A stretch of 60,919 nt of DNA. Source: a virus. Its lineage: Duplodnaviria > Caudoviricetes. Each line of letters starts with the position of its first letter. Within the stretch, counting starts at the first letter, position 1. Position numbers and translations under genes: made by a program. Below the pieces are notes generated by a model. It was not told the DNA's origin. It ran no database searches and saw only the letters and a list, made by a program, of their open reading frames with translations. The DNA is taken from the IMG/VR virus record IMGVR_UViG_3300042991_000522, positions 1 through 60,919 of that record; one strand, 5' to 3'. Shown here piece after piece: positions 1,033 through 54,937 of the stretch.

Positions 1033-1263
1033 TCATTCATTTTTTAATTTCTTCAATTTAAGTTTTCTATATTCGTTTTTTGTAAAAAAAAAGTCTTTAA
1101 AATTACTTGGATGTAATATTTTTCTTTGGTTATTATCATCAAAGAATTCAAAATATTCAACTACTAACCAACCTTCATCTTTATGATATGTTGCGTCATA
1201 TGTTTTATTTTTTGTGAGTTTAGCTTTTCCTTTTTTAAAATTTTTTTTGGCTATTATTTCCAT
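1033..1263 (-). CDS. class B small protein (RxxKLxxL tail)
   Basis: ends YRKLKLKKLKNE. Confidence 0.75.
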   Translation of the reverse strand: MEIIAKKNFKKGKAKLTKNKTYDATYHKDEGWLVVEYFEFFDDNNQRKILHPSNFKDFFFTKNEYRKLKLKKLKNE

Positions 1264-1520
1264 TTTATATTATTTAGTTTTTCTCTTCTATTCATTTTTA
1301 TTGATTTTTCAACAAATGTTTCGTGTATTTTGTTGGCTTTATCAATATCATTTATATTAGGTAAATTTTTATCTAATGTTAATATATTACGATAATTATC
1401 ATGTTCAATAATTTTGAAGTGTTCTGAGGTGTACCATTTTGGTAGTTTACCGCCACACCATTTTAAAATTTCTGGTTTATATAATGTGACAATGTCTCCT
1501 ATTTTAAATAATCCTTTCAT
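1254..1520 (-). CDS. class B small protein, KIGDxV core
   Basis: FKIGDIV...PKWY...RREKLNNI; paralogue of 1521..1793. Confidence 0.8.
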   Translation of the reverse strand: MKGLFKIGDIVTLYKPEILKWCGGKLPKWYTSEHFKIIEHDNYRNILTLDKNLPNINDIDKANKIHETFVEKSIKMNRREKLNNIKWK

Positions 1521-1793
1521 TTATTTTATTAAGTTTAATTTTTTTAATTTTTCTCTTCTATTTACTTTTGTTGCTTTTTTTATAAGTGTATTACGTATTT
1601 TATTAGGTTCGACCATTGGATTTAAATTAGGTAAATCTTTATTTAATATCACCACATCTTTCATAATTTTATCATGACCAACAATTTTAAATTCATCTGC
1701 AGAATACCAAATTGGTAGTGTATTGTGACACCATTTTAGAATTTCTTTTTTATTTAATATAACAATATCTCCTATTTTAAATATTTCATCCAT
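1521..1793 (-). CDS. class B small protein, KIGDxV core
   Basis: FKIGDIV...PIWY...RREKLKKL. Confidence 0.8.
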   Translation of the reverse strand: MDEIFKIGDIVILNKKEILKWCHNTLPIWYSADEFKIVGHDKIMKDVVILNKDLPNLNPMVEPNKIRNTLIKKATKVNRREKLKKLNLIK

Positions 1794-2020
1794 TTATTTG
1801 ATTTTAGTTTTTTCAATTTTATCATTCTAACTTCTTTTTCTGATATAAAAAATTTGTCAATATACCAATATTTATTACCATCATCTGATAAAATATTAAG
1901 ATATTCTGATTTCATATCTAATATTTTATATTTTTTATTGGGTGATAGAAAGCATAGATAATTATGTTTTTCTTTTTCCCATTTATCGCCACAATATATT
2001 GTATCTCCTATTTTAAGCAT
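1772..2020 (-). CDS. class B small protein
   Basis: KIGDTI...RMIKLKKL. Confidence 0.75.
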   Translation of the reverse strand: MLKIGDTIYCGDKWEKEKHNYLCFLSPNKKYKILDMKSEYLNILSDDGNKYWYIDKFFISEKEVRMIKLKKLKSNKWMKYLK

Positions 2021-2213
2021 TTTGTAATTTTTCTAACTTTTCTTTTCTAATTTGTTTTACTGTTGCGAAACATTCTTTTTCAAATATATCTATATAACCT
2101 ATATCACAGAACATTGAATATGTTAATTCATTTTCCTTGACTACTGTGTACCATTGTTCCTTTGTTAATTGAAAGAAGTAGTAAGGTTCGTTATTTATAC
2201 ATTTAACTTTCAT
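2013..2213 (-). CDS. class B small protein
   Basis: MKVKCI...RKEKLEKL. Confidence 0.75.
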   Translation of the reverse strand: MKVKCINNEPYYFFQLTKEQWYTVVKENELTYSMFCDIGYIDIFEKECFATVKQIRKEKLEKLQNA

Positions 2214-2454
2214 TTAATTTTTGTAGTTTTTCTTTTCTTTCAGTTATTATTGATAATTTTAGAAACTCAGGTGTTATTGTATTAAAATTTTTTAAAGGGT
2301 TTGGAAATTCTGGCTCAAGATATGCGCAATCATGTGTCATATCAATTATTTCGTATGTTTCTGTTGTGTACCAATCTGGTATATGACCTTTATATTTTAA
2401 GATTTTTTCAAAGTTTAATATCACCAAATCTCCTATTTTAAATTCTCTATTCAT
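2203..2454 (-). CDS. class B small protein
   Basis: FKIGDLV...PDWY...RKEKLQKL. Confidence 0.8.
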   Translation of the reverse strand: MNREFKIGDLVILNFEKILKYKGHIPDWYTTETYEIIDMTHDCAYLEPEFPNPLKNFNTITPEFLKLSIITERKEKLQKLNES

Positions 2455-2701
2455 TTAATTTTTTTAATTTACGTTTTCTATATTGTATTAGTGTACAAAA
2501 GTGTTCATGAAATTTAAATTCATCTGTTGTATCTTTTTTTATTGTATAAAAACTTGATGAATCATTATTAGGTCTTTCATTCATAATTTGTACTCTATTA
2601 ATTCTAACTAGTTCTATTGTATAAAAATTATTTTCAAGAAAGAATGTAACACCATGTTTTTCTATAGTTTTTGTGCAATATAGTTTATCTCCTGCTTTCA
2701 T
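2447..2701 (-). CDS. class B small protein
   Basis: MKAGDKLYCTKT...RKRKLKKL; tandem paralogue of 2685..2951. Confidence 0.8.
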   Translation of the reverse strand: MKAGDKLYCTKTIEKHGVTFFLENNFYTIELVRINRVQIMNERPNNDSSSFYTIKKDTTDEFKFHEHFCTLIQYRKRKLKKLNE

Positions 2702-2954
2702 TTAGTTTTTTAAGTTTAAGTTTTCTATATGCGGTTTCTGTCATAAAATAGTCATAAAAATTATAATCATCGTCAGCATTAAATGGTGATAGATGAAAAT
2801 TTGATGATAAAAAAAGGTTTGACATATCATTTATAATTTCTATATTGTAATTATCTGCTGATTCTATTTTGTGTAGTTTATTTTCTAAAAAAAATATTCT
2901 ACCATGATGTATTAAAGTTTTAGTGCAATATAGTTTATCTCCTGCTTTCATTTA
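2673..2954. repeat. 32-bp direct repeat at the starts of two tandem class B genes
   Basis: GTGCAATATAGTTTATCTCCTGCTTTCATTTA at 2673-2704 and 2923-2954. Confidence 0.8.
2685..2951 (-). CDS. class B small protein
   Basis: MKAGDKLYCTKT...RKLKLKKL. Confidence 0.8.
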   Translation of the reverse strand: MKAGDKLYCTKTLIHHGRIFFLENKLHKIESADNYNIEIINDMSNLFLSSNFHLSPFNADDDYNFYDYFMTETAYRKLKLKKLNESRR

Positions 2955-3186
2955 TTTTTTCTATTTTAAGTTTTCTTAATTCTTTTTCTGTTATAAAATT
3001 TTCTATGTGGTAGTGATTATTTTGCTTATCTTCTTTTATCCAATAAAACACAGAATTTTCACTTATTTTCATATAAAAACCAATGTTGGCTATTGTATAT
3101 TTTTTACCATTAACCAATTGTTTAACATCTGGTTTTTTTTGATGATATATTACAACTTCACCTATTTTATATTTTACTCGACTCAT
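2935..3186 (-). CDS. class B small protein
   Basis: YKIGEVV...RKLKIEKI. Confidence 0.75.
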   Translation of the reverse strand: MSRVKYKIGEVVIYHQKKPDVKQLVNGKKYTIANIGFYMKISENSVFYWIKEDKQNNHYHIENFITEKELRKLKIEKINESRR

Positions 3187-3442
3187 TTAGTTTTTGTATT
3201 TTAAGTGTTCTCAATTCTTTTTCTGTCATAAAGTATTTTCTATATTTGATATTTAGTGAATATGTTGGATTTGTTGTGACTTTAATTTTTTCATCATAAA
3301 TATAAAAGTTATTATATTTAATAACATTTGATACATATTGTATTATATGATATTTTAAATTTTCTCTATATGTTATATTATTAATTGTGAATGTTTTTAT
3401 ACATATAACGTTTAGTGATTTCATATCATTTGGTTTTTTCAT
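3167..3442 (-). CDS. class B small protein
   Basis: VICIK...RTLKIQKL. Confidence 0.75.
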   Translation of the reverse strand: MKKPNDMKSLNVICIKTFTINNITYRENLKYHIIQYVSNVIKYNNFYIYDEKIKVTTNPTYSLNIKYRKYFMTEKELRTLKIQKLNESSKI

Positions 3443-3695
3443 TTAGTTTTTGTATTTTTTGTTTTCTAATTTCCTTTTTAGTTGCAAAATAATCTTCAAA
3501 AATATAATAATATTTTTTATTCATTTTTGATGATGGTTGATAAATATAATGACAACAAATATGATATTGATTAGTTTCAACACTAATCGAAATTTGATTT
3601 TTATCAATATCAATTTTTTGAATAGTATAAGTATTATTTTTTAAATTTATCTTTTCTCTATTCTTTATACACAATATTTTATCACCTACTTTCAT
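3426..3695 (-). CDS. class B small protein
   Basis: MKVGDKILCIK...RKQKIQKL. Confidence 0.8.
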   Translation of the reverse strand: MKVGDKILCIKNREKINLKNNTYTIQKIDIDKNQISISVETNQYHICCHYIYQPSSKMNKKYYYIFEDYFATKKEIRKQKIQKLNEKTK

Positions 3696-3952
3696 TTATT
3701 TTTTTTTATTTTATCTTTTCTTAATTCTTTTTCTGATATAAAATAGTCTGAAAATATAAAATATGTACCAAAATTTTTTATGCTCCAATATTTTTCTCCA
3801 TTTTCTGATGTAGTTTTAATATATTTATCTAGAACATCTAATTTAATTTCTAATATTGTATATTTTTTACTTTTTAATACTACAATATATTTTTGACTGT
3901 CATTTTTACGTATAAGGTTTTTTATACAAAATACTTTATCTCCTTCTTTCAT
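3692..3952 (-). CDS. class B small protein
   Basis: MKEGDKVFCIK...RKDKIKK. Confidence 0.75.
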   Translation of the reverse strand: MKEGDKVFCIKNLIRKNDSQKYIVVLKSKKYTILEIKLDVLDKYIKTTSENGEKYWSIKNFGTYFIFSDYFISEKELRKDKIKKNK

Positions 3953-4220
3953 TTAATTTTTGTATTTTTTCTCTTCTAGTTTTTTTATCATCTTTAACAA
4001 TTATTTTTTCTACTATTAATTGAGATAATGACTAACCGTAAATTCCTTCTGTCATTGCCCAGTGATTATTATGTTCTACAAATTTTAAATTTTCTATTTG
4101 ACAATAATATGGATATTTTATTCTTTTATTAACAGGACAATTTCCATTTAACGTACTAGACCAAATTGATGGTCGTTTGGTTATTATTATATAGTCTCCT
4201 ATCTTAAAATTGTGTTTCAT
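3936..4220 (-). pseudogene. class B gene interrupted by in-frame TAG at 4032-4034
   Basis: Reading past YG* continues in frame SLSQLIVEKIIVKDDKKTRREKIQKLNERRR*, restoring the class tail and the usual overlap. Confidence 0.65.
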
Positions 4221-4428
4221 TTATATTATTTAATTTTTGTATTTTTTCTTTTCTTTCTTGTTTAAGATTTATAAAAAAATTTATTGGTACCCAATGACTC
4301 ATACCTTTTTGATCTATTACATAAGCAAAATTGTTATCGTGTATATCATAGTAATCAAAATAAAAAATTCTATTTTTTTTTAATAGTATGCTACCTTCTT
4401 GATATATTAATTTATCTCCTTTTTTCAT
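4204..4428 (-). CDS. class B small protein
   Basis: MKKGDKL...RKEKIQKL. Confidence 0.75.
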   Translation of the reverse strand: MKKGDKLIYQEGSILLKKNRIFYFDYYDIHDNNFAYVIDQKGMSHWVPINFFINLKQERKEKIQKLNNINETQF

Positions 4429-4681
4429 TTATTTTTTGAATTTTAAGTTTTCTACATTCTTTGATATTATCCAGGTATGATGATGTTATTTTGTCTGAAC
4501 CCATTGATAGCACTTTATTTATATAAACTATTTGATTATCATTATTATCTACTTCTCTTGATATTTGTGTTATTGTGAAAATTTCATTTGTAAGAGTCCA
4601 TTTTGGATTGCTCTTAAGTATTGAATATACTTTTTTTGGATTTATTATTACTTTGTCTCCAATTTTAAATATTGTTTTCAT
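4412..4681 (-). CDS. class B small protein
   Basis: FKIGDKV...RKLKIQKI. Confidence 0.75.
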   Translation of the reverse strand: MKTIFKIGDKVIINPKKVYSILKSNPKWTLTNEIFTITQISREVDNNDNQIVYINKVLSMGSDKITSSYLDNIKECRKLKIQKINEKRR

Positions 4682-4865
4682 CTATTTTTTGTAATTTAAG
4701 TTTTCTAAGTTCTGTTTTATAATTAATTTTTATATATTCATCATATGTATCTGCTGAATTTTGAAATTTCGTAGCATCTTCTATATTGCTAGAAAATCTA
4801 TAGTCGTAATTATCATAAGAGCACCAATATTTACCATTTTTAATATTTTTCAGTACATATGTCAT
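4665..4865 (-). CDS. class B small protein
   Basis: LKNIKNGKY...RKLKLQKI; similar to 15041..15244 and 19138..19347. Confidence 0.7.
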   Translation of the reverse strand: MTYVLKNIKNGKYWCSYDNYDYRFSSNIEDATKFQNSADTYDEYIKINYKTELRKLKLQKIDENNI

Positions 4866-5097
4866 ATAATTTATCTAATTTATTTTTTCTATTTTGTTTA
4901 AAATCACTAAAGTAGCCATCTTTTTTATTAAAAGTTGCTAAATCAAAACTATGTCTCTCATTTTCATCATCAATTATATAATAAGAGTCACCTATAATAT
5001 CTATTACTTGGTATATTTTATTAACTGTGGTGGTATGTCTTCGGTCTGACCTCATTATACATGGATCCACACAAATTATATTATCTCCTATTTTCAT
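4840..5097 (-). CDS. class B small protein
   Basis: MKIGDNIIC...RKNKLDKL. Confidence 0.75.
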   Translation of the reverse strand: MKIGDNIICVDPCIMRSDRRHTTTVNKIYQVIDIIGDSYYIIDDENERHSFDLATFNKKDGYFSDFKQNRKNKLDKLYDICTEKY

Positions 5098-5218
5098 ATA
5101 TTGTGTTTTGAAGTTTAATTGCTATTCTATATGTTAATGGTGTTGATGGTCTATTCCAATACTCATTATTTTGTATAATAGTATTCAAATCAATATCTTC
5201 TATTATTTCTATTTTCAT
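5081..5218 (-). CDS. 45-aa hypothetical protein
   Basis: Fills the gap in the array with overlaps at both ends (MKIEIIEDIDL...). Confidence 0.5.
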   Translation of the reverse strand: MKIEIIEDIDLNTIIQNNEYWNRPSTPLTYRIAIKLQNTIYENRR

Positions 5219-5475
5219 TTATTTTCGTATATTTTATTTAATTTTTCTTTTCTATTTTTCTTTATTGCTGGTAAAAGATAATATGTTGCTATAGTATTAT
5301 TATTATTATTACGTGATAAATTTTTGTCTAAATAAGCTAATGGGTACTCAGAATTATAATCAATATTTATAATTTGAAATATCTCTGGTGAAAACCACAT
5401 GGGTCTAATACCACCAAAACATGATAATTTTTCGTTTATTTTAACAAAATCACCAATTTTTAATTTTATCTTCAT
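5215..5475 (-). CDS. class B small protein
   Basis: LKIGDFV...PMWF...RKEKLNKI. Confidence 0.8.
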   Translation of the reverse strand: MKIKLKIGDFVKINEKLSCFGGIRPMWFSPEIFQIINIDYNSEYPLAYLDKNLSRNNNNNTIATYYLLPAIKKNRKEKLNKIYENK

Positions 5476-5581: not shown

Positions 5582-5995
5582 ATGTATAGAATAATTGAAA
5601 AAATTAATGGTAAATCTACTTTTTATGTTCAGAAAAAATATGGATTATTTTGGTCAAAAATAGTAGCACCTTATGGTTATGCTCTTTTATCAACAGCATT
5701 TTTTGTAGCACTGACTATTATGTTTTTTATATTTGGTATAAAATTTAACAGCAATAATTTTCCTGTTGGTCTTATATCTTTACCAATTGCTTTTTTAATA
5801 ATTGCTATTTGTTCAGCTACTATGAGTGATTTTAGAATATTTATAAAATTTGATGATTTATATGATTCTAGAAATTATATAATTAATAAGGAAAAAATTA
5901 AAATAGAAAGAAAAACTATTGTACATTATATGAATGATCGTGAAGAACGTGCTGATAAATTAAAAAAAATAAATAGGAAAAAATTATTTAAATAA
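5582..5995 (+). CDS. class B membrane protein (2 TM)
   Basis: YRIIE..FYVQKK, two hydrophobic segments, RADKLKKI; paralogue of 13119 and 14599 genes. Confidence 0.75.
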   Translation: MYRIIEKINGKSTFYVQKKYGLFWSKIVAPYGYALLSTAFFVALTIMFFIFGIKFNSNNFPVGLISLPIAFLIIAICSATMSDFRIFIKFDDLYDSRNYIINKEKIKIERKTIVHYMNDREERADKLKKINRKKLFK

Positions 5996-6762: not shown

Positions 6763-7113
6763 ATGAAATATACTAAATCATTTGAAGATTTTAATGGTAA
6801 ACAAATAACATCACCAGAAATAAATTCAATAGTGAAGTTTAGTGGTTGGAGGTTTAATAAAGATTATTATCCTTGTGATGTTTATATAATTAGTGGTCAA
6901 TATTTATCTGGTGGTAGAGTGAGTAATTTTTGGTATTGGAAAAGAATTTTACCTAATGGTGATTTATCAGAAGAAGAACACGGATATGGTGATTTTTATA
7001 CACCTTTGGTTGATATGACATCAACATATACACCAGAAGAAATTAAAGAAATATATCCTGCTAAATATAAGGAATATGAATTGAGTAAGGATGCAAAAAA
7101 ATATAATATATGA
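6763..7113 (+). CDS. class A protein (MKxxKxFE...KYNI)
   Basis: MKYTKSFE...AKKYNI. Confidence 0.8.
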   Translation: MKYTKSFEDFNGKQITSPEINSIVKFSGWRFNKDYYPCDVYIISGQYLSGGRVSNFWYWKRILPNGDLSEEEHGYGDFYTPLVDMTSTYTPEEIKEIYPAKYKEYELSKDAKKYNI

Positions 7114-7418
7114 TAGCAAATTTTGATAACTTTATAAAAGATGGTAATTATTATCATGGTTTAATTGGTGGACTTTGGGGTGATTTAAGGTCAACTTCAC
7201 CACTACGAAAGAACATTCAAAAATATTTTTTTGAAAAGTATCCACGTAAAGTTAATATATTAAACTCAAGTGGCTCAATAAATTCTATAACCTTAGGTAT
7301 TTTAATAAAATTTGCAAATAAGAGAAAAGATGAAGAATTATTAAGATTAATTCAAGTTTTTTTAGATCGTGTTGAAGAAATTAGAATTGAAAAAGAAGCA
7401 AAAAAATATAACATATAA
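7110..7418 (+). CDS. class A protein
   Basis: MIANFDNF...AKKYNI. Confidence 0.8.
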   Translation: MIANFDNFIKDGNYYHGLIGGLWGDLRSTSPLRKNIQKYFFEKYPRKVNILNSSGSINSITLGILIKFANKRKDEELLRLIQVFLDRVEEIRIEKEAKKYNI

Positions 7419-7421
7419 TAC

Positions 7422-7676
7422 GTGGAACATTTGAAAAGATATAAAAATAAATACTATAAAAAAGGTGATTATGTATATGTAGCATATGATAATTACTTAC
7501 CTTACGCTAAAATTATAGATAGGGCGGGTATTAGTTATAATGTATTAATATATACAATATACGATGATTTGCTTGACGATGCTTGGTTTTCTGAAGAATC
7601 AATCATTAGAAGCCTTATATCATCAGAAATTGAAGAGTTTGAATTAAAATTAGCAGTAAATAAATATAACATATGA
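7422..7676 (+). CDS. class A protein, KxGDxV core
   Basis: GTG start EHLKRY, KKGDYVYV...NKYNI. Confidence 0.75.
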   Translation: MEHLKRYKNKYYKKGDYVYVAYDNYLPYAKIIDRAGISYNVLIYTIYDDLLDDAWFSEESIIRSLISSEIEEFELKLAVNKYNI

Positions 7677-8101
7677 AACATTTAAAATCATATGAATCAA
7701 CAAGTAAGTATAATTGGAAGAATATTTATGAAGAGGATGGTAAATTATATATTAATGTATATAAGTTAATATATGAAATGGAAGAAACAGTGAGAGATTT
7801 GGGTAAAAATGAAATATTAAAAAAGGAAGATGAATATAGATATTTACTTGAGACATCATTTATCGGTAAGGTGATAAGTTTTCAATGTTCTGATTGTGGT
7901 GAAACTCATACAGGTATTTGTGAAGATGTAGAGTTTCATACTGGATTCGAAGATCCAGGTAACAATAGATTTCAGGTTGATTTTATACAATTTGTGATAG
8001 AAGATATTGATGATTCACATGCTATTGATGATGATAAGATAACTGTACATTTAGATATTGATCCAGAATTATATAGAAATATAAAAAGGTATAATATATG
8101 A
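7673..8101 (+). CDS. class A protein
   Basis: MKHLKSYE...KRYNI. Confidence 0.8.
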   Translation: MKHLKSYESTSKYNWKNIYEEDGKLYINVYKLIYEMEETVRDLGKNEILKKEDEYRYLLETSFIGKVISFQCSDCGETHTGICEDVEFHTGFEDPGNNRFQVDFIQFVIEDIDDSHAIDDDKITVHLDIDPELYRNIKRYNI

Positions 8102-8433
8102 TAATAGATAGATTTGGAGACTATAAAGAGCCCAATATTGGTGACTATGTTATTTGTTCAGATAATGAGGATTTTTTGAGTGCTGATGATAATGTTACCA
8201 GTAAAAATATTAATTATTATTTGGAAGTTAATGTTGGTAAAATAATAGCAAAGAATGAATTTGGTTTTGATTATATTGTCGGATATAATAATATACCAAA
8301 AGATATATCTAATTATTTTTTACATTTTGGGTATAAAAATTCCAGAGGTTTTAACTCCAACGAAATTGTAAAATTTTCAAAAGATAGAATTGAATTAGAA
8401 CTCTCATTGTCAACAAAAAAATACAATATTTAA
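8098..8433 (+). CDS. class A protein
   Basis: PNIGDYVIC...TKKYNI; paralogue of 9711 and 11515 genes. Confidence 0.8.
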   Translation: MIIDRFGDYKEPNIGDYVICSDNEDFLSADDNVTSKNINYYLEVNVGKIIAKNEFGFDYIVGYNNIPKDISNYFLHFGYKNSRGFNSNEIVKFSKDRIELELSLSTKKYNI

Positions 8434-8476: not shown

Positions 8477-8719
8477 ATGATAAAGGCGGGTACTAAATTT
8501 GTTGTTCATAAATATGGAGATACAGAATATACTATATCTAAAGTGTATGAATATTCTTGCGACATTAAATGGAATGAAGATGGTTTTGATAATAGTGTTT
8601 CTTATAAAATTCAAGAAGTTGAAAAATATTTCAAAGACAATATATGGATTAATAGTTTAGCTTATGATAGAAGAAATAAATTAGATAGATTAAAAAATTT
8701 ATGGAACAATAATGCATAA
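8477..8719 (+). CDS. class B small protein
   Basis: RRNKLDRL. Confidence 0.75.
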   Translation: MIKAGTKFVVHKYGDTEYTISKVYEYSCDIKWNEDGFDNSVSYKIQEVEKYFKDNIWINSLAYDRRNKLDRLKNLWNNNA

Positions 8720-8990
8720 GAATTTTTATATACAATGTAATAATAGTGAGGAATTTATATTTGCTCAAAAATATTTATTTAAAAATAAATATTTATGGTA
8801 TAGTTCTGGTGAAGTTGTTAAACCTACATCTAGAATTTATCCGATATATTTATATGATGCAGATAATAGTGATAGTGATAGTTTAAGATTTCTTTATCTC
8901 AATTCAAATACTTTGGTATTAAATAAAAAATTGTTTGATATTAAAATAGAGATGAGAAAAGAAAAATTGAGCAATTTAGATTTATTGTAA
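8712..8990 (+). CDS. class B small protein
   Basis: RKEKLSNL. Confidence 0.75.
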   Translation: MHKNFYIQCNNSEEFIFAQKYLFKNKYLWYSSGEVVKPTSRIYPIYLYDADNSDSDSLRFLYLNSNTLVLNKKLFDIKIEMRKEKLSNLDLL

Positions 8991-9103
8991 TTTTTCTGGA
9001 TGACAAACGTTTTCTTTTTTACTAACTTTAAAATCACATTTTTTACATTTAAATTTAGGTGAATCAACTTTGTTATTTTTTTATCTTTACACGCTTTTGT
9101 CAT
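8982..9103 (-). pseudogene. small Cys-rich peptide, apparently frameshifted in A-runs
   Basis: Adding one A in each of two A-runs gives MTKACKDKKNNKVDSPKFKCKKCDFKVSKKENVCHPEKLQ; ATGA-coupled to the upstream gene. Confidence 0.35.
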
Positions 9104-9409
9104 AAATTATATTTTTTAGATTTAACATACAGGTTTAAAAAATTTTTGCAATCATCTAATTTTTTTTGACGTAAACAACACATTTGGTATATATTTATCA
9201 ATTTTACATTCTGATTTTATATCTGACACATCAGTATCATTAATTTCATCTGTGTCATTGTCATATTTGCATAGCATATGATATATTACACTATCACCTT
9301 TATAGTTAGCAATACGGTCAATAAAATAATCTTTATTTTCATGAACATACACTGTGTATTTTTTAATATCTTTTTTATTATAAAGTTCGTATATTTTTAA
9401 GTGTTTCAT
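9100..9409 (-). CDS. class A protein with frameshift in an A8 run (9160-9167)
   Basis: MKHLKIYE; removing one A gives ...TSKKLDDCKNFLNLYVKSKKYNL*. Confidence 0.7.
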
Positions 9410-9714
9410 ATATTATATTTATTAGCTGTTAATTTTATTTCTAATTCTTCTTTTTCTTTTGTTGTTGCTTTTCTTTCAATAAAAGTTTTATCTAAATAAA
9501 AATTTATAATACCACTTAATGTTGAAACCGCTATAGTATAATTATAATTACTATTACCATTAATTATTTTACCACAATTAAATAATCCTTTATATACATC
9601 TTTCCAATGATTCATGTATTTATCTTTAAAAATAATATAATCTCCTATTTTCAATTTTACTTTATATTTATCTAATTCAATAATATGTTTTTCGTATGCT
9701 TTAAGGTATTTCAT
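9406..9714 (-). CDS. class A protein
   Basis: MKYLKAYE...KIGDYI...ANKYNI. Confidence 0.8.
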   Translation of the reverse strand: MKYLKAYEKHIIELDKYKVKLKIGDYIIFKDKYMNHWKDVYKGLFNCGKIINGNSNYNYTIAVSTLSGIINFYLDKTFIERKATTKEKEELEIKLTANKYNI

Positions 9715-11826: not shown

Positions 11827-11873
11827 GTATTATATATTAAAAATAATAATTATAAAAAAATTATATATAAGTT

Positions 11874-41427: not shown

Positions 41428-41449
41428 TATAATTTATTATATTTGTATT

Positions 41450-46841: not shown

Positions 46842-47753
46842 TCAAGTATTTACAAAAAAACTATAATCTTTATTGATTATAAATTTAAAATCGAAGCCAC
46901 TATTTATAGTGGCTTCTTTTTTTGCTTCATTTTTTTCTTTATCTCGTTCATAAATATATAATGATTTTATTTCAATTACCATATTTAATTTTCTAATAAA
47001 AAAATCTGGAAAATATTTTCTATTTTTCCCATCAAAAAAATAGTTAATAGTACCATTAAAATTTTCAATTTCTATATTATGTATTAAACAATAATCTATA
47101 AAATCTTTTTCATATGTTCCTCTATAATGCAGTCCACTAATATGATGTTTTTGTATATATCCAGAATGTTGTTTTTTATGTATTTCAAATGATTTTGATG
47201 GGCTTGTAACACCATAATTCTTAAAACACGTTTCTTCCTTTTTCAGTTTAATCTTAGATGATTTTGATGGATTTGAGACACCATAATTTTTAAGACAAGT
47301 TTCTTCCTTTTTTAATTTAATTTTAGATGATTTTGATGGATTTGAGAAACCATATTTATCTATCATAAATTTTTCATATTCTTCTGTTTTAAAAAAATAA
47401 TTATTACCATTTTCTATCATTGTTTTTTTAACTTTTTCTTTAACTTTTTCGTTTTTAGAAACATTATCAGTACCATATTTTTTTAGACATGTATTTTTTC
47501 TTTTCTCTAAATTACATATTTTACAAGTATAAATACCATCTTTACTAATATATTTACAATAATTATTATATTTAATTTCTTTCTCATTACCACAAATATC
47601 ACAAGCACATAATACTTTAAGATGACTGTATTTACTTAATTTATCTATAGTTAATTCTATATTATCATGTTGTTTAACGTTAAACCCCATTTCTTTATAT
47701 TTTTTAACCATTTTACCATTTACTTTTAAACTAATCGTTTTTGTTAATATCAT
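46842..47753 (-). CDS. putative homing endonuclease, paralogue of 28138..29289
   Basis: CDICG, KNYGVSNPSKS repeats, YRGTYE, YFPDFF..VIEIKS. Confidence 0.7.
   Translation of the reverse strand: MILTKTISLKVNGKMVKKYKEMGFNVKQHDNIELTIDKLSKYSHLKVLCACDICGNEKEIKYNNYCKYISKDGIYTCKICNLEKRKNTCLKKYGTDNVSKNEKVKEKVKKTMIENGNNYFFKTEEYEKFMIDKYGFSNPSKSSKIKLKKEETCLKNYGVSNPSKSSKIKLKKEETCFKNYGVTSPSKSFEIHKKQHSGYIQKHHISGLHYRGTYEKDFIDYCLIHNIEIENFNGTINYFFDGKNRKYFPDFFIRKLNMVIEIKSLYIYERDKEKNEAKKEATINSGFDFKFIINKDYSFFVNT
46893..46924 (+). terminator. intrinsic terminator of the gp32-like gene, inside the antisense endonuclease ORF
   Basis: GAAGCCACTAT-tt-ATAGTGGCTTC followed by a T-run. Confidence 0.7.
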
Positions 47754-49997: not shown

Positions 49998-50309
49998 ATG
50001 AAATATTTAAAAAATTATGAAAGAAGAAATTTTAAAGATTATAAAAAATATAATATAATATTAAAAAAGAATTTTATTGCAGATAAAGCATCAGTTTTTG
50101 AAGAATATGGAGAATTAATTATATCTTTACAGTATAGTTATATAATAAGAAATGAAATTCTTGTAAATCTTTTTAATATTTTTAAAGGTTTAGATTTTAG
50201 AATTTATAATGGCACATCAAATAGTATAATTTTTGAAGTTTCTGATGTTCCTGCTCAATATTTTGAGAGAATTGATATTGAAAAAGATAGTAATAAATAT
50301 AATATATAA
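49998..50309 (+). CDS. class A protein
   Basis: MKYLKNYE...NKYNI. Confidence 0.8.
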   Translation: MKYLKNYERRNFKDYKKYNIILKKNFIADKASVFEEYGELIISLQYSYIIRNEILVNLFNIFKGLDFRIYNGTSNSIIFEVSDVPAQYFERIDIEKDSNKYNI

Positions 50310-50324
50310 AAAAAAATTATAAAA

Positions 50325-50792
50325 ATGAAACACGTAAAAAGTTTTGAAAGATTAACTTCAGATGAAGTATTTGATATATTTAAAGATACATATAATCAAA
50401 ATCCATTAAAAGAGGATCATGATTTTTATATATTTTTAGCTGGTGAAAAATTTGAAGAAGCTGAAAATGGTTTATATAAAAAAGTTTTAGATATTGAAAA
50501 TATGGTGAGAATTAAACTAGATAAAGAAAGTGTTGGTGCTATGCAAGGATTAAAAATGAGAGCAATGACTCAACAAGGTGTTAAAATGTATCATATTTGG
50601 TTACCAAATGATATTAGAGAACTAGTTGATGGTAAAGGTTCCAATAGTATTGAATCATGGTTAGTTGATTTAATAGATAAACATAAACAAACTGGTTCTG
50701 ATGATCATGGTAAAAAAATATATAAGGAAGTTATAAATAAACACGAAGAAAGAGAAAAGATAAAAAAAGATTCAAACAGATATAATATATGA
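50325..50792 (+). CDS. class A protein
   Basis: MKHVKSFE...NRYNI. Confidence 0.8.
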   Translation: MKHVKSFERLTSDEVFDIFKDTYNQNPLKEDHDFYIFLAGEKFEEAENGLYKKVLDIENMVRIKLDKESVGAMQGLKMRAMTQQGVKMYHIWLPNDIRELVDGKGSNSIESWLVDLIDKHKQTGSDDHGKKIYKEVINKHEEREKIKKDSNRYNI

Positions 50793-51262
50793 AGCACATT
50801 AAATATTTTAAAGAAAAAAAAGAAGTTGAATATCATGATATTGATGATATATTAAAACACTATCTTGAGGCTGCATTATGGACAAATGAAGGAGATGAAG
50901 GTTTTGAAGATAAAACTATTTATGATTTCTCTGAAGAATCAACAAATAACGCAAAAAATGAAATAGAATGGTTTGTAAAAAGTGCAGGAAAATATATTAA
51001 TGATATAAGTGACGAAAGTATTGGACATGATATATGGCTAACTAGAAATGGACACGGTACTGGTTTTTGGGATAGAGGATATTCTGATAAAAAAACCACA
51101 CTTTTTAATCATCTGTGTGACATATTAGGTTCTGCTGATGCTTATGTTGGTGACGATGAAAAAGTTTATATTAATAGTTATCAAGAACTTCCTGAATTTG
51201 ATTTATACACTTATATGAAAGAATTAAAATTTAAAGGTGACATTAAAAAATATAATGTATAA
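50789..51262 (+). CDS. class A protein
   Basis: MKHIKYFKE, GHDIWLTRNGHGTGFWDR core, ends KKYNV. Confidence 0.8.
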   Translation: MKHIKYFKEKKEVEYHDIDDILKHYLEAALWTNEGDEGFEDKTIYDFSEESTNNAKNEIEWFVKSAGKYINDISDESIGHDIWLTRNGHGTGFWDRGYSDKKTTLFNHLCDILGSADAYVGDDEKVYINSYQELPEFDLYTYMKELKFKGDIKKYNV

Positions 51263-51943: not shown

Positions 51944-52549
51944 ATGTATCACGATACAATTCATATAAGATTTAAATATTATAATCATAAAGATATTAAT
52001 TTCGATTATAGTTTTTTTATTTCAAAATATGAAAACAATAGTAATTATAAAACTAATAATTTATTTTCACCTATAAAATATGGTGAACTTTTACACAAAT
52101 TTTATAGCATTGGTTTTAATTTAAAATATTTAAGATTTAATGATATATCAGAAGATGATACTGTTTATTGTAGTTATAATTATCAGCCAAATTTTAATAA
52201 ATTTTTTTTACTGTATAGCAAATTAATTGAACAAAAAAACTTTGAAATAAGTCTTGAATATGGTAATATAATACACGGAAATTTCATACCTAATAATATG
52301 AATTTTTTTGCAGGTGTGCATTTTATTCCACATAAAAAAGAGGTTCAAACTGAATTTTCAGAGAGTGTAGTTGGAGGTAAATTACATAAAAAATATACTG
52401 AATTATATCAAATAATAGATAAAAACGGTTTAGTTATAGCAAATGAGGTAACAAGTGGAATTTTAAATTTCGAACAGCATTTTTTTGAAAAACACGAAGT
52501 TAAAGTTGCACTCAGAAAATATAAATTGAGTAGATTAGATTCTCTATAA
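51944..52549 (+). CDS. class B protein
   Basis: RKYKLSRL. Confidence 0.7.
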   Translation: MYHDTIHIRFKYYNHKDINFDYSFFISKYENNSNYKTNNLFSPIKYGELLHKFYSIGFNLKYLRFNDISEDDTVYCSYNYQPNFNKFFLLYSKLIEQKNFEISLEYGNIIHGNFIPNNMNFFAGVHFIPHKKEVQTEFSESVVGGKLHKKYTELYQIIDKNGLVIANEVTSGILNFEQHFFEKHEVKVALRKYKLSRLDSL

Positions 52550-53719
52550 ATTTTCAATCAAATTATTAAAATGCTTATTAAATATTAACTCAACCTTATC
52601 TCTATAAGAGATAGGAAATAATATAGAATCATGTACCGTAAATAATATTATATCTGGATATGTTTCAAAAATTTCCTTAATTACAACATTAAATACAAAA
52701 TCACTTTCCTTTTTTTGTAATTCGTGTGCTAATTCCTTATAATTTTTTCTGTTCTCTTTAAACTCTAAAATATATTCATAAACAGATGGATATATCTTCT
52801 TAAATATATTATTTACTTTTTTACCAGACTTTAAATTGTTTCCAAATAAAACTTTATATATCAACTCTTTAGCCTCCCTCCTACTATTCAAATCAGAATT
52901 ATTTATGATGTCATCGTATAATAAACCTGACTTAACTAAATCAAAATATTTTTTAGTGTCGCCATTTATATGTAATAATTCATTTTTTAAGATAACAGCA
53001 AAAAATAATGGTTGTGAATTTTTTATATCTAACTCTGTAATCAATTCATTATTTATTGTTAGATAATTATTTCTTATTTCTTTTTTAAGAATAGTGAAAT
53101 TTGTGTGTAATCTACCATAATCATCAAAGTTAAAATATATGTGGTTGTGTTCAATATTATCAATTGATATTATATTCTTTTTGTATTTATTTTCATCAAT
53201 ATCTGGCTTTATTTTGTGCATATATTTTATAGCACCATTATAATCAATATCTATTTTATCAAGACAGTTTATTAATTTTTTTCTTATATCAGGTTGAATT
53301 GAACTTTGAGTAATTTCTGTAATAGTAGTTTCACATCTATTATTATTTTTCTTAACTAAGAAAGCATCAAAATTTTTCCATCTAATTATATCGTAAGCGT
53401 ATTTAACATTTATTTTATATGAATTTGTTTTTTTACCAACGTAGTATTTTGATGATAAATTGATGAAATTATTATCACATAAATAACTTATATAATAATT
53501 ATAAAATTCACCATATTTTTTTCTTAATATTTTAGATGATAAATTAAACTTATCATCATCTATAAAATAAAATTTACTTATTAATTCATGTATAATATTA
53601 ATCAAATAAGAACATTTTAAATTGATACCTTTGTATTCAATTTTTTTTTGTTGAGTGAGATATTGAAACTCTTTTGGAACGAATTGTATTAGGTAATTGT
53701 TATTAGATGTAGAAATCAC
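52544..53719 (-). CDS. minimal PolA/T7-RNAP-superfamily polymerase-like protein
   Basis: YGRLHT, ELDIKNSQP (motif A), RREAKELIYKVLFG (motif B), TVHDSIL (motif C). Confidence 0.65.
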   Translation of the reverse strand: MISTSNNNYLIQFVPKEFQYLTQQKKIEYKGINLKCSYLINIIHELISKFYFIDDDKFNLSSKILRKKYGEFYNYYISYLCDNNFINLSSKYYVGKKTNSYKINVKYAYDIIRWKNFDAFLVKKNNNRCETTITEITQSSIQPDIRKKLINCLDKIDIDYNGAIKYMHKIKPDIDENKYKKNIISIDNIEHNHIYFNFDDYGRLHTNFTILKKEIRNNYLTINNELITELDIKNSQPLFFAVILKNELLHINGDTKKYFDLVKSGLLYDDIINNSDLNSRREAKELIYKVLFGNNLKSGKKVNNIFKKIYPSVYEYILEFKENRKNYKELAHELQKKESDFVFNVVIKEIFETYPDIILFTVHDSILFPISYRDKVELIFNKHFNNLIENL

Positions 53720-53838
53720 AGATATATTTTTTTTTCTTAATATATGAAAAAATAGTATTTTTGTTTTATAAAAAATGCGTGTATTTTTTTTTTATTAAAT
53801 TATTTTTATATATTTGCAAAGAAATTAAATATTAAAAA

Positions 53839-54018
53839 ATGAAAGAAGAAGATATTTTGAAAATAATAGATGAAACTTTTGATGAAGAGATTTCATCTTA
53901 TGCATTTGAATCAATTCTTGGTTTAGAGAGTTCAGTAGAAGGTAAGAAAGAATTTATGAAAAGTGTATCAGAAAAATTAAAAGTTCTTTTTGGTGATAAT
54001 GATTTATCTAAATTTTAA
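53839..54018 (+). CDS. 59-aa hypothetical protein
   Basis: Manual: MKEEDILKIIDE...; TATATTTG at 53809-53816. Confidence 0.6.
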   Translation: MKEEDILKIIDETFDEEISSYAFESILGLESSVEGKKEFMKSVSEKLKVLFGDNDLSKF

Positions 54019-54021
54019 ACA

Positions 54022-54309
54022 ATGGAAAACGAAACTTGGAAAGAAGCTTTTTGTGATCAGGTAGATGATGGAAAATTTTGGAAAAATTTGTTTAAAGATG
54101 AATTTGACAATCATCAATTTTTAGATAGGAGTGATGCTGTTTATTTGTGTAAAAAAGCACAAGCTGATGCATATGAAAATATCATATCTAAATTAGAAGG
54201 AAAAGTGAGTGATGATATCATTAATGACATTAAACAAATTTTGGAGGATAATTGGAATAAAGATGATTCAACACTTGGTATGTATTTTAACGGTGAACAA
54301 ATAAAATGA
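54022..54309 (+). CDS. hypothetical protein
   Basis: ORF in operon. Confidence 0.7.
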   Translation: MENETWKEAFCDQVDDGKFWKNLFKDEFDNHQFLDRSDAVYLCKKAQADAYENIISKLEGKVSDDIINDIKQILEDNWNKDDSTLGMYFNGEQIK

Positions 54310-54488
54310 AAAAAATATTAAACATATTATTTCAAAGGTATATATTAATACCTATATCATTTTTGCTAGGTATTTCAATTGACCAGTTTTTTATACGTAA
54401 GAATGAAACTTGGTTATTTGTTTTAATATTAACTGCAATTTATACGATATTATATTTTTACTATTTAATAAAAAATAAAAATAAATGA
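54306..54488 (+). CDS. small membrane protein
   Basis: 2 TM, ATGA overlaps. Confidence 0.6.
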   Translation: MKKILNILFQRYILIPISFLLGISIDQFFIRKNETWLFVLILTAIYTILYFYYLIKNKNK

Positions 54489-54937
54489 AAAAGTTTTTAA
54501 AAATTTACAACAAGGACAGAAATATTTTTAAGATGATAAATCCTTCAGAAAAAGGTTTTGAATTAATTATCTTAAATGATGCGCTATTTAAAGAATATTT
54601 AAGCATATTAAATTTTCATGGTGATAAAGGTGTTAATGTTTTGTGGCAAATGAAATTTAAAGAACATTCTTATGCTCTATATAAAAATTGTAAATTTTCA
54701 GATCCAATGGACAATTTTTATGCAGAACCAACTAACAGGTTTTTTGGTTTACAGTATAATATTAAAAGTGGTACAGATTTGAAACCTTTTGGTAAAAAAT
54801 TTAAAGTTACTTGTGATTGTGTAGAATACTATTCTAATTCTGTTAGAAAACCAGCAGTTGCAAAAAATAAATTTAAAGACTTTCTTTTATTAGAAAGAAT
54901 GTTAAAAATTGACGAACTTAATTCAAAAAGTGAATAA
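54485..54937 (+). CDS. class B protein
   Basis: RMLKIDEL. Confidence 0.65.
   Translation: MKKFLKIYNKDRNIFKMINPSEKGFELIILNDALFKEYLSILNFHGDKGVNVLWQMKFKEHSYALYKNCKFSDPMDNFYAEPTNRFFGLQYNIKSGTDLKPFGKKFKVTCDCVEYYSNSVRKPAVAKNKFKDFLLLERMLKIDELNSKSE

Follow-up and report, generated by a model that had tools for sequence, protein, structure and literature searches.

A basic C-terminal helix shared by roughly one in three small genes of a T4-related huge phage fragment

Two analogous units are found in parts of the published record, namely the PeSL cassettes of T4-type phages (PMC2839356, PMC4122927) and a unit at the junction between the 3' part of one ORF and the 5' part of the next in a tandem paralogue cluster (PMC2568036). 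We analysed a window of 60,919 nt (the whole stretch of IMG/VR record IMGVR_UViG_3300042991_000522 studied here), which is a fragment of a T4-related huge phage genome with a GC content of 21%. Its host is probably a member of the Bacteroidota, and the genome size in the lineage of T4-related huge phages using the tail described below is estimated at roughly 0.7 Mb. In related loci, tandem arrays are conserved across each junction, at the 3' end of one gene and at the 5' end of its successor, and vary in the centre.

Occurrence of the tail in the window

Choosing ATG-initiated ORFs greedily by length, with a minimum of 35 aa, yielded a set of 138 (18,301 aa) that likely includes a few spurious ones. 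The strict tail, defined as R..K[LIMV]..[LI] ending no more than 15 aa from the C-terminus, was present in 43 of the 138, and away from tails the pattern occurred only five times in the 18,301 aa. In 1000 shuffles of whole-protein residues, tail matches averaged 0.43 (maximum 4), and 1000 shuffles of the last 23 residues alone gave a mean of 0.80 (maximum 4), so that the shared tail proposed in the sequence-only reading does exist; a basic C-terminal helix is common to about a third of the small genes of the window. A six-frame count yielded 44 in-frame tail matches, five inner in-frame matches and 19 off-frame or non-coding matches, the last being mostly regex artefacts that run across stop codons. 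Against the earlier total of about 49 proteins, we count 43 strict cases, to which can be added two near-misses, two orphan tails and one motif, in ORF 41450-41791, lying more than 15 aa from the C-terminus; 16 of the 18 genes assigned to 1033-5475 carry the strict tail, the others being a near-miss and a broken gene. None of the 138 ORFs combines the R..K tail with KYNI, as had been stated, and 38 of the 138 end in [YF]N[ILV]. The loci are as follows (class B genes, that is, genes with the tail, unless described otherwise; strand in brackets).

1033-1263 (-): 76 aa, RKLKLKKL at 1045-1068
1254-1520 (-): 88 aa, RREKLNNI at 1266-1289
1521-1793 (-): 90 aa, RREKLKKL at 1536-1559
1772-2020 (-): 82 aa, barrel family, RMIKLKKL at 1805-1828
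2013-2213 (-): 66 aa, RKEKLEKL at 2025-2048
2203-2454 (-): 83 aa, RKEKLQKL at 2215-2238
2447-2701 (-): 84 aa, barrel family, RKRKLKKL at 2456-2479
2685-2951 (-): 88 aa, barrel family, RKLKLKKL at 2703-2726
2935-3186 (-): 83 aa, barrel family, RKLKIEKI at 2953-2976
3167-3442 (-): 91 aa, RTLKIQKL at 3188-3211
3426-3695 (-): 89 aa, RKQKIQKL at 3444-3467; folded example
3692-3952 (-): class B near-miss, 86 aa, barrel family, ending in RKDKIKKNK, without the final hydrophobic residue
3954-4220 (-): probably a broken class B gene, a tail-less 62-aa barrel ORF (4032-4220) followed by an orphan frame of 31 codons ending RREKIQKLNERRR, motif at 3954-3977
4204-4428 (-): 74 aa, barrel family, RKEKIQKL at 4231-4254
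4412-4681 (-): 89 aa, RKLKIQKI at 4430-4453
4665-4865 (-): 66 aa, RKLKLQKI at 4683-4706
4840-5097 (-): 85 aa, barrel family, RKNKLDKL at 4867-4890
5215-5475 (-): 86 aa, first in the 1033-5475 array, RKEKLNKI at 5230-5253
5582-5995 (+): 137 aa, two TM-like segments, convergent end, RADKLKKI at 5948-5971, Arg codon CGT
8477-8719 (+): 80 aa, RRNKLDRL at 8669-8692; TATATTTG box upstream
8712-8990 (+): 92 aa, convergent end, RKEKLSNL at 8955-8978
12186-12554 (-): 122 aa, convergent end, RKQKVEKL at 12204-12227
12544-12816 (-): 90 aa, RKAKLEKI at 12556-12579
13119-13610 (-): 163 aa, two TM-like segments, RKEKLKIL at 13125-13148
14047-14220 (-): 57 aa, 6 Cys, RKTKMKQL at 14059-14082
14222-14245 (-): orphan tail RKEKLDKL in a body-less 23-codon open frame; a remnant or frameshifted end of 14272-14598
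14599-15051 (-): 150 aa, TM-like stretch 33-80, RRDKLKKL at 14605-14628
15041-15244 (-): 67 aa, RRSKIQKI at 15059-15082
15234-15569 (-): 111 aa, RKAKLDRI at 15267-15290
15556-15858 (-): 100 aa, RLKKLKKL at 15574-15597
15830-16027 (-): 65 aa, 5 Cys, RKNKIKKI at 15860-15883; TATATTTG box upstream
17284-17484 (-): 66 aa, 8 Cys, RNDKMKKI at 17302-17325
17468-17728 (-): 86 aa, RKNKLKIL at 17486-17509
17712-17969 (-): 85 aa, barrel family, RKQKLKNL at 17736-17759, Arg codon CGA
18146-18565 (-): 139 aa, N-terminal TM-like segment, RKQKLKKL at 18164-18187
18562-18843 (-): 93 aa, barrel family, RKIKMQIL at 18589-18612
18821-19141 (-): 106 aa, RTSKLVSI at 18845-18868
19138-19347 (-): near-miss, 69 aa, ends RKNKLKKNK
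19510-19788 (-): 92 aa, RNEKIKKL at 19522-19545
20368-20562 (-): 64 aa, RKNKLNKI at 20380-20403
20570-20944 (-): 124 aa, RQEKLNNL at 20588-20611
33199-33306 (-): class B ORF, 35 aa, the shortest and the weakest as a gene, RNEKLKEL at 33217-33240
34703-35137 (-): 144 aa, RKEKLIKI at 34712-34735; orthologue (45% identity) keeps the tail
35142-36014 (-): 290 aa, no family match, RNKKLQRI at 35148-35171
42391-42618 (-): 75 aa, barrel family, convergent end, RKSKLDKL at 42403-42426
51944-52549 (+): 201 aa, convergent end, RKYKLSRL at 52514-52537
54485-54937 (+): 150 aa, RMLKIDEL at 54896-54919

The full motif extends over about 18 residues, [FY][FYI]-x-[TS]-x-x-E-x-RKxKLxKL, and corresponds to an N-capped helix, with T, S, D or N at position -5 in 52% of tails and E at position -2 in 41%. 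In the AlphaFold2 model of the product of gene 3426-3695, five strands are followed by a C-terminal helix (residues 73-88) with a pLDDT of about 90.

Constraint on the encoded peptide

We compared four sets of orthologues (2, 2, 6 and 6 distinct sequences, 32-57% identity), in which R(0) and K(+3) were unchanged throughout, L/I exchange was the sole change at +4 and +7, and residues after the motif diverged freely. Codons at the motif positions turned over synonymously (AGA/AGG/CGA; TTA/TTG/CTA/CTG/CTT). For example, the orthologue of 35142-36014 (32% identity) keeps the tail with AGG against CGA for Arg, R, K, L and L are invariant in the six orthologues of 51944-52549 despite synonymous codons, and RMLKI.ELN is invariant in the six distinct orthologues of 54485-54937, an alignment with only 32 invariant columns of 165. 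Codon usage in the motif equals the background (TTA for 67% of Leu in both), and in the tandem arrays of relatives identity was highest at second codon positions (0.89-0.93), followed by first (0.75-0.78) and third (0.62-0.69). Taken together, these comparisons show that the constraint on the tail acts on the protein and not on the DNA, through purifying selection on amino acids.

The position of the tail relative to neighbouring genes was also considered. The tail is retained in seven genes with convergent neighbours, the five already named as such (beginning at 5582, 8712, 12186, 42391 and 51944) and two further ones (13119-13610 and 14047-14220). No motif nucleotides were found upstream of any of the 12 class B genes lacking an upstream neighbour, the one apparent exception being a decayed upstream gene. 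Between the motif and the following ATG lie 1 to 102 nt in the window. Conservation limited to nucleotides at one set spacing from that ATG was not observed, and the earlier view that the tail is an amino-acid-level feature, and not a mere by-product of the next gene's initiation region, was supported. In 15 of 36 co-directional pairs the next ATG lies exactly 1 nt past the motif, within Asn-Glu codons, and gene junctions therefore use the motif sequence as well.

Bodies carrying the tail and its possible role

The bodies preceding the tail include SH3/KOW-like barrels, 2-TM proteins, Cys-rich peptides and larger proteins. The 43 tail proteins of the window include three with two TM-like segments, in which the tail sits after the last segment, one with an N-terminal TM segment and three Cys-rich ones (5-8 Cys). 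In BLASTP comparisons only seven of the 43 bodies clustered, in groups of four and three, and a barrel-only HMM (E<=0.01) matched 14 of the 43, 10 of which were in its training set. The description of the bodies as unrelated was therefore largely right but overstated, and that of a capsid-like protein was not supported, as 35142-36014 had no Pfam or PHROG match. Proteins in relatives carry the tail behind two Pfam domains, Acb3 (E 6.4e-29) in one case and Tad3 (E 1.4e-35) in another. Within the Acb3 family it was found in 15 of 49 proteins (the query included), all among the 18 closest, with 58-100% identity to the query, whereas none of 31 distant homologues (33-46% identity) had it, their proteins stopping about 15 residues earlier. 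This pattern shows a modular gain of the tail on an Acb3-family body, and the comparisons support the view that the tail has been joined to different bodies, including families whose members elsewhere lack it.

The tail might instead be a framework helix of one hyper-diversified small-barrel superfamily to which class B would roughly correspond, capping the barrel, evolving most slowly and having no partner. The barrel-only HMM matches (14 of 43 in the window and, among all tail proteins, 68 of 199, of which 47 had trained the HMM; E<=0.01), the high confidence of the modelled helix adjoining the barrel and the peak of conservation in the family alignment, at G4, D5, F70, R77 and K80, agree with such an origin, as do five strands predicted ahead of the tail in a low-confidence model of the 201-aa protein (51944-52549), for which hhalign similarity reaches 42 columns upstream of the tail (probability 8%), and the absence of class switching among homologous bodies, with no A-B pairs versus 302 B-B pairs. 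However, of the 38 tail proteins with 120 aa or more the HMM matched none, the tail is also present on 2-TM and Cys-rich bodies and after a Tad3 domain, the Acb3-family body exists without it, barrels without the helix occur in tandem-barrel proteins and others of the same type in the KYNI class, and the invariant residues are charged, not core, making this explanation unlikely. We consider somewhat less probable still that the basic helix tethers proteins to DNA, RNA, ribosomes or acidic lipids and not to a protein hub. Measured between N-cap and C-terminus, about 18 residues, its net charge has a mean of +3.4 among window tails and +3.1 among those of relatives, with 47% of tails at +4 or above, and the folds closest to the barrel in Foldseek, at E values of only 0.03-0.7, are KOW/Tudor domains of NusG/Spt5 and ribosomal proteins; yet in 9-22% of tails the charge does not exceed +1 although R, K and both hydrophobic residues are exactly retained, bulk electrostatic binding does not usually go with such invariance at particular positions, and two or three hydrophobic face residues would bind membranes weakly.

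Improbable, in our judgement, is self-association, in which the tails would zip into a short coiled coil, form homo- or hetero-oligomers and themselves be the hub. A short a/d-like stripe may be formed by hydrophobic positions +4 and +7, often joined by -1, but it spans just about two heptads and includes the invariant Arg. Least credible is a DNA- or RNA-level element, either the next gene's initiation region or a recombination junction for cassette shuffling, with the peptide as a by-product. The 15 close junctions, the arrays of relatives and the two published units fit it, but the synonymous turnover, background codon usage, least conserved third positions, convergent genes and motif-free regions upstream of first-of-array genes do not, and nucleotide identity in the window drops to the background level (0.33-0.38) no more than about 30 nt from the motif in both directions; this reading is largely refuted.

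We tentatively prefer, with a probability of about 0.4, a portable helix that would dock its carriers, early proteins with accessory and anti-defence roles, to a putative hub. Because selection acts at the peptide level and the tail has been added to unrelated proteins, it is probably a common docking handle; the earlier term, a docking or localisation tag, reflects this modularity and the two invariant charged residues beside a short hydrophobic stripe. In the module, a short strand ([FY][FYI]) would lead through a helix N-cap ([TS]-x-x-E) into a basic helix of two to three turns, with Arg(0), Lys(+3) and the hydrophobic residues +4 and +7 on one face. We infer that this face binds a partner and that the carriers are early and cytoplasmic. 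In a lineage of T4-related huge phages, probably infecting Bacteroidota, the carriers form a large, fast-diversifying accessory set in which SH3/KOW-like mini-barrels predominate, beside 2-TM proteins, Cys-rich peptides and homologues of known anti-defence proteins. The most likely role of the tail would be a common interaction surface docking all of them to one conserved partner, possibly a hub protein or else an anionic surface, for instance that of nucleic acid. Counting against docking, the helix may be part of the fold in the barrel-family tail proteins (68 of 199), five strands are also modelled ahead of the tail in the 201-aa protein, with hhalign similarity upstream of it at a probability of 8%, the motif sequence is used at gene junctions too, and host sensors could readily exploit a tag that hundreds of proteins share, which would make it costly.

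Spread among related phages

The tail was present in 199 of 1109 distinct ORF products from the window and related loci. With its HMM, a relative of 256 kb gave 79 sites and one of 330 kb gave 48, but a 501-kb relative with a similar GC content gave only 6, so the motif is not created by AT-richness. These counts show a clade-wide expansion. The barrel-plus-tail family had no match in Pfam, PHROG or PDB; its profile matched 4087 cluster representatives (E<=1e-3), and the strict tail was present in 145 of the best 150 matches.

Occurrence and anatomy of the tail

Among the 138 ATG ORFs selected greedily in the window, 43 ended in the tail, a C-terminal R-x-x-K-[LIMV]-x-x-[LI] helix, with 1-10 residues following the motif, and the pattern occurred only five times outside gene ends in 18,301 residues. 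Shuffling of whole proteins gave a mean of 0.43 matches and shuffling of the last 23 residues a mean of 0.80, with a maximum of 4 (1000 shuffles of each), and 44 of the matches in a six-frame count were in-frame gene ends. The sequence-only reading had put the number of such proteins at about 49, a figure that holds if the count also takes in two near-misses, two orphan tails and a motif whose distance from the end exceeds 15 residues; its description of one body as capsid-like found no backing in Pfam or PHROGs. Two tail-bearing (class B) genes, at 3954-4220 (minus strand) and 14222-14598 (minus strand), look broken, each consisting of a tail-less body ORF followed by a short tail-only frame, which a frameshift, a mutation to a stop codon or faulty assembly could explain. 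A second C-terminal tag, [YF]N[ILV], defines the KYNI class (class A), to which 38 of the 138 ORFs belong; no ORF carried both tags, so that the mutual exclusion noticed earlier is borne out.

Regions of the window occupied by KYNI-class genes
6763-8433
9406-12182
16096-17119
22281-24973
36053-42384
49998-51262
58769-59263

We aligned 199 distinct tails, taken from the window and from related loci, and in all of them the motif lay within 12 residues of the C-terminus. With the arginine numbered 0, the core comprises R(0), K(+1, 70%), K(+3), L/I(+4), K(+6, 63%) and L/I(+7), and is preceded by Phe at -7 (43%), an aromatic or aliphatic residue at -6, an N-cap residue at -5 (T, S, D or N, 52% in total), Glu at -2 (41%) and an often hydrophobic residue at -1; T/S-x-x-E is the classical helix capping box. 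Drawn on a helical wheel, the residues at +4 and +7 would share an arc of about 100 degrees with R(0) and K(+3). AlphaFold2 modelling of the product of 3426-3695, based on 47 family sequences, predicted five strands followed by a short one (residues 70-72) and then a helix (residues 73-88), with a mean pLDDT of 81.6 and values of about 90 across the final 20 residues; the model of a 201-aa protein, based on six sequences, had a mean pLDDT of 57.7 with the tail below 50, and gives a weak hint. Two structural or processing candidates were rejected. Specifically, a coiled coil or leucine zipper would need at least three heptads with hydrophobic a and d positions, and the tail has a helix of about 16 residues in which +4 and +7 are consistently, and -1 partly, hydrophobic; a T4-like L/I-x-E protease site at the tail end was dropped since Glu occupies +9 in only 25% of the 199 tails.

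Conservation of residues and of nucleotides

Four class B genes of the window were compared with their orthologues on related contigs, to which they are 32-57% identical. R(0) and K(+3) were invariant in every set, and +4 and +7 alternated solely between Leu and Ile, with the residues after the motif varying in both sequence and length. The codons turned over beneath these residues: for example, among the six orthologues of 51944-52549, Leu(+4) was encoded by TTG, CTA, CTG or TTA, Leu(+7) by TTA, CTA or TTG and Arg by AGA or AGG, and the orthologue pair of 35142-36014 differed in its Arg codon (AGG against CGA). Across the 43 paralogues, codons at the four fixed positions were used much as in the background (Leu TTA 67% in both; Arg AGA 91% against 81%). 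Around the motif in two tandem arrays of the relatives, identity was highest at second codon positions (0.89 and 0.93) and lowest at third positions (0.69 and 0.62), and in the window nucleotide identity had fallen to that of random sequence (0.33) by about 30 nt to either side.

In 36 co-directional cases the next start codon followed the motif at a distance of 1 to 102 nt. In 15 of these the next ATG lay exactly 1 nt past the motif, inside the frequent Asn-Glu codons, a junction that was probably kept by tandem duplication and is probably used for coupled translation. The tail was also retained in seven genes facing convergent neighbours, namely the five that had been named earlier (at 5582, 8712, 12186, 42391 and 51944), all of which we recovered, and two more. 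Upstream of the 12 class B genes that lack an upstream neighbour, the motif nucleotides were absent, the one apparent exception, 14047-14220, being preceded by the remnant of a decayed gene. If the conserved sequence were a DNA-level cassette, it should be kept irrespective of frame and residues, be present before the first genes of arrays and be dispensable at convergent ends; however, synonymous codons turn over, codon usage follows background, third positions are the least conserved and neither of the two positional expectations holds. Since the orthologue, codon-usage, codon-position, distance and first-gene tests agree, conservation is at the amino-acid level, as the sequence-only reading had supposed, and is not confined to nucleotides near the next ATG; a purely DNA-level explanation appears extremely improbable.

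The KYNI tag may be different in this respect. A TATATAAT-like box ended 1-4 nt before the ATG in seven of the 13 KYNI-class genes without an upstream neighbour, and the KYNI codons together with an overlapping start spell the same sequence, suggesting that KYNI, unlike the class B tail, may partly be a nucleotide-level signal.

TATATAAT-like boxes, by the ATG that each precedes
ATG at 6763
ATG at 11826 (minus strand)
ATG at 11874
ATG at 16096
ATG at 22281
ATG at 36053
ATG at 41824

Bodies carrying the tail and its spread among relatives

When the tails were removed, BLASTP linked only seven of the 43 class B bodies, in groups of four and three, and left 36 as singletons. The commonest body is a predicted five-stranded barrel with weak resemblance to KOW, Tudor and SH3-like domains (Foldseek E 0.03-0.7), and a barrel-only profile matched 14 of the 43 tail proteins of the window (10 of them training members) and 68 of 199 overall, including none of the 38 that have at least 120 aa. 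The tail was also present in the window on three proteins with two TM-like segments, where it follows the last TM segment, on one protein with an N-terminal TM segment and on three Cys-rich peptides. The barrel profile matched KYNI-class proteins as well (e.g., 39515-39808, E 1.5e-6). Body-only BLASTP gave 302 pairs within class B, 491 within class A and none between the two, and the 21 pairs joining a class B protein to an untagged homologue mostly reflected decayed tails, such as RKLQLIKI; judged from these comparisons, class membership is evolutionarily stable.

Database searches named few of these bodies. Pfam and PHROGs gave nothing meaningful for 10 class B proteins, with no Pfam family at E<=1 except noise, and a word-based homologue search with 1521-1793 returned two proteins, the query included. 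Foldseek of the barrel model against PDB and BFVD had no match at E<=0.001 and unnamed viral matches only, and the ESM Atlas returned solely viral clusters, all unnamed. In sequence searches of PDB, the tail profile had no match at E<=10 and the barrel-plus-tail profile none of significance (best E 0.22). Among 139 non-barrel tail proteins, KOW (PF00467) and the Pfam SH3-like families had no match at E<=1e-3, PHROGs matched six families, with one member each and none with an annotated function, and Pfam matched Tad3 (E 1.4e-35), Acb3 (E 6.4e-29) and DUF7448 strongly, with one member each and all in relatives, and SAS4 weakly.

No window protein matched Tad3 or Acb3. In the relatives, the product of 8593-9162 in locus L062 matched Tad3 (PF25185) with 122.1 bits against a cut-off of 27, covering profile positions 1-117 of 119, and that of 17534-18259 in locus L035 matched Acb3 (PF25187) with 101.9 bits against a cut-off of 27, covering positions 24-244 of 245; well above the Pfam cut-offs, these two tail-bearing proteins are predicted members of the two families. 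Tad3 binds ThsB and is a direct inhibitor of this Thoeris protein according to the accessible part of PMC13728456, and Acb3 is described as an anti-CBASS protein in the available portion of 10.1101/2025.06.06.658234. In the Acb3 homologue the profile stops at residue 225 of 242, after which the tail follows. Comparison of 49 Acb3-family proteins, counting the query, placed the tail in 15, all within the 18 closest (58-100% identity), the other three of which have a truncated or altered end, whereas the 31 distant homologues (33-46% identity) all lack it and end about 15 residues sooner, at ...RMEKERKF. Because 15 of 18 close relatives and none of the 31 distant ones carry the tail, it was gained by an already existing family, Acb3, within this phage lineage. 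One family thus occurs with and without the tail, which is itself found on non-homologous bodies (barrels, 2-TM and Cys-rich proteins and, in the relatives, Tad3 and Acb3), and the Acb3 gain is the strongest evidence that the tail is a portable module rather than only an element of a single fold.

The tail marked 18% of ORF products across the related loci, where tandem arrays of 10-20 genes of about 88 aa each have conserved ends and variable centres. With a tail HMM, a 256-kb relative gave 79 sites and a 330-kb relative 48. The 501-kb relative G002 (loci L012, L038 and L067), which has 77% gp32 identity and a GC content of 22%, gave six, and in the 21 kb round gp32 of this contig there were no class A or class B ORFs, which makes G002 a natural tail-poor counterpart for comparison; since a relative of similar GC has only six sites, the motif does not arise from base composition. 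Two more distant contigs had no match to the HMM. Copy number of the tail is lineage-specific. Contigs with gp32 at 51-52% identity keep tails of the form R.KKI..I (e.g., seven of 37 ORFs in L035), and three barrel proteins of the 636-kb GenBank phage LR756504 end in RKSRIENL, RKSRIEKL and RKERINSL, with Arg at +3. The HMM matched LR756504 weakly (10 matches at E<=10, best 0.0074) and had no match in LR756501. Searching 1.84 billion cluster representatives with a profile of 47 barrel-plus-tail proteins gave 4087 representatives at E<=1e-3 and 219 at E<=1e-10, and the strict tail was present in 145 of the best 150 matches.

Some proteins from this search had other arrangements. P0052, P0075 and P0102 (325-737 aa) consist of 4-6 tandem FKVGD...RFELV barrel copies without the RK.KL helix, and P0047 and P0137 look like two complete barrel-plus-tail units fused; Pfam SH3_15, SH3_13 and SH3_12 were matched solely in tail-less tandem-barrel proteins of the search, and neither KOW nor any SH3 family of Pfam was matched by a class B protein of the window. 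In two relatives a 544-aa helicase gene lies amid class B arrays (L060, 2375-4009, minus strand; L064, 5130-6764, minus strand), the L060 copy matching Helicase_C_2 and, more weakly, DEAD_2 in Pfam.

Genome context and possible roles of the tail

The 60,919 bases of the window are the complete record of this genome, with a GC content of 21% throughout and no tRNA genes. Every gene class uses all three stop codons, and the standard genetic code therefore applies. The closest GenBank phage gp32 proteins belong to uncultured huge phages of 634-735 kb (42-44% identity), a phage genome of 735 kb being described in the accessible part of PMC7162821. Nearer relatives are numerous in IMG/VR (gp32 identity 76-82%), some on contigs of 200-501 kb with a CheckV completeness of 36-70%, which suggests a full genome of roughly 0.7 Mb. 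Besides the gp32-type single-strand DNA-binding protein, the window encodes a glycosyltransferase and a cytidylyltransferase-like protein and has matches to ferritin, a response-regulator receiver, ankyrin repeats, GIY-YIG, DNA methylase and NUDIX, together with the genes below.

Further genes of the window
29839-33114, minus strand, SusC/TonB-type outer-membrane barrel with CarboxypepD_reg domain, 1091 aa (Pfam OMP_b-brl_4, E 5.4e-58)
28138-29289, plus strand, DUF7487 homing-endonuclease-like paralogue
46842-47753, minus strand, DUF7487 homing-endonuclease-like paralogue directly adjoining gp32

The SusC/TonB-type gene is adjoined by a GT4 glycosyltransferase gene, whose product also matches GT4-conflict (E 1.1e-6). 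The consensus of the Bacteroidota -7 promoter element is TAnnTTTG, which we take the TATATTTG box of the window to fit. This box occurred at 29 sites against 18.7 expected, a number attained in 1 of 100 shuffles, and nine of the 29 were correctly oriented and no more than about 35 nt ahead of a start codon, four of them before class B genes; host-type promoter boxes were present at four of the 12 first-of-array class B genes. The fit of the box and the SusC-like gene point to a Bacteroidota host.

Start-proximal TATATTTG boxes, correctly oriented and about 10-25 nt ahead of the start codon
5558
8457
13626, minus strand
16047, minus strand
25526, minus strand
41438
53809
56471
59319

We tentatively favour the view, with a probability of roughly 0.4, that accessory proteins made early and located in the cytoplasm share the tail as a docking surface and would attach to one common partner through the helix face. 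This is suggested by a short helix with one face on which two charged residues and two hydrophobic ones are exactly conserved, by the gain of the tail by unrelated bodies and its position after the last TM segment in membrane proteins, and by host-type promoter boxes at four of the 12 first-of-array genes together with the presence of the tail on anti-defence homologues. The tail might instead cap the structure of barrels that form one hyper-diverse superfamily, in keeping with the barrel being the commonest body and with the confidently modelled terminal helix of 3426-3695; the longer tail proteins that escape the barrel profile and the Acb3 family make this unlikely, but even as a fold element only it would still define a very large new mini-barrel protein family. 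Anchoring to nucleic acid or another anionic surface would suit the mean net charge from N-cap to C-terminus (+3.4 in the window and +3.1 in the relatives) and appears unlikely, 9-22% of tails having a net charge of +1 or less. Self-association through the tails, for which hydrophobic residues at +4 and +7 might speak, seems very unlikely. Prediction of a homodimer of a barrel-plus-tail protein (two copies) scored 0.19 against a mark of 0.42, a score that we count neither for nor against this reading.

The docking reading can be carried further, to a proposal that we consider improbable, in which the tail would be an address label by which a library of diversified binders and anti-defence proteins, more than 100 in all, is loaded onto one phage or host machine, such as the virion interior or ejection apparatus for proteins entering with the DNA, or an unfoldase or protease clearing early proteins on schedule. 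KYNI would then be an alternative label, never combined with the first, for another destination or time. If true, this would represent a two-tag protein-sorting system in a bacteriophage. Huge phages have hundreds of small genes of unknown function, and here roughly a third of the window's ORFs and more than 4000 metagenome protein clusters share one motif about 18 residues long, so that the role and organisation of these accessory genes become addressable with one peptide. Since it is appended to homologues of Thoeris and CBASS inhibitors, the tail may flag a large and so far little explored set of candidate host-takeover or anti-defence proteins and lead to a single partner that all of them need.

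Portable terminal tags are already known as a kind; the motif itself had no matching Pfam, PHROG or PDB entry, and no description of it was found in the main texts of the literature searched. The T4 capsid targeting sequence is an N-terminal peptide shared by internal proteins and cleaved at L/I-x-E by the prohead protease. Like it, the tail is a short terminal peptide common to unrelated phage proteins and, as we propose, directs them to one partner, but it is C-terminal, predicted helical and also present on 2-TM proteins; a T4-type targeting sequence was rejected on its position within 12 residues of the C-terminus and the low frequency of Glu at +9. Poxvirus ankyrin proteins carry the F-box-like PRANC module at their C-terminus, and ESCRT-III subunits dock to the MIT domain of Vps4 through C-terminal helices of the MIM1 type, which have a basic residue and then L-x-x-L close to the C-terminus. 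In both, as in the arrangement proposed here, a variable binding body is joined to a conserved, short terminal helix by which many members dock to one hub, although the tail comes from a bacteriophage and has no sequence or profile match to either. Thus, by analogy, the tail may work like known terminal address or docking peptides, but it lacks their defining sequence features where these were checked. The Tad3 and Acb3 families do not themselves have the tail, as its absence from 31 of 31 distant Acb3 homologues illustrates, and the SH3, KOW and Tudor barrels with a weak fold likeness (NusG and Spt5 KOW, 53BP1 Tudor and NdhS) are also without it. As described in the accessible parts of PMC2839356 and PMC4122927, the PeSL cassettes of T4-type phages are promoter-terminator motifs mediating modular shuffling and, like the tail motif, are short repeats bordering small accessory genes in plastic regions of T4-related genomes; they are DNA-level regulatory elements, whereas the tail motif is coding and selected as a peptide.

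The KYNI class has a conserved N-terminus, M-K-[HY]-[LI]-K-x-[FY]-E (K5 77% and E8 78% in 103 distinct proteins), and a strand-like C-terminus of the form phi-E-phi-K-phi-[DN]-[AST]-x-K-[YF]-N-[IL]. We dropped as unsupported the possibility that the helices of the KYNI class and of class B are homologous and pair through complementary charges; the KYNI C-termini mostly follow this alternating, strand-like pattern. One member of the KYNI class, encoded at 23506-24315, is an ankyrin-repeat protein.
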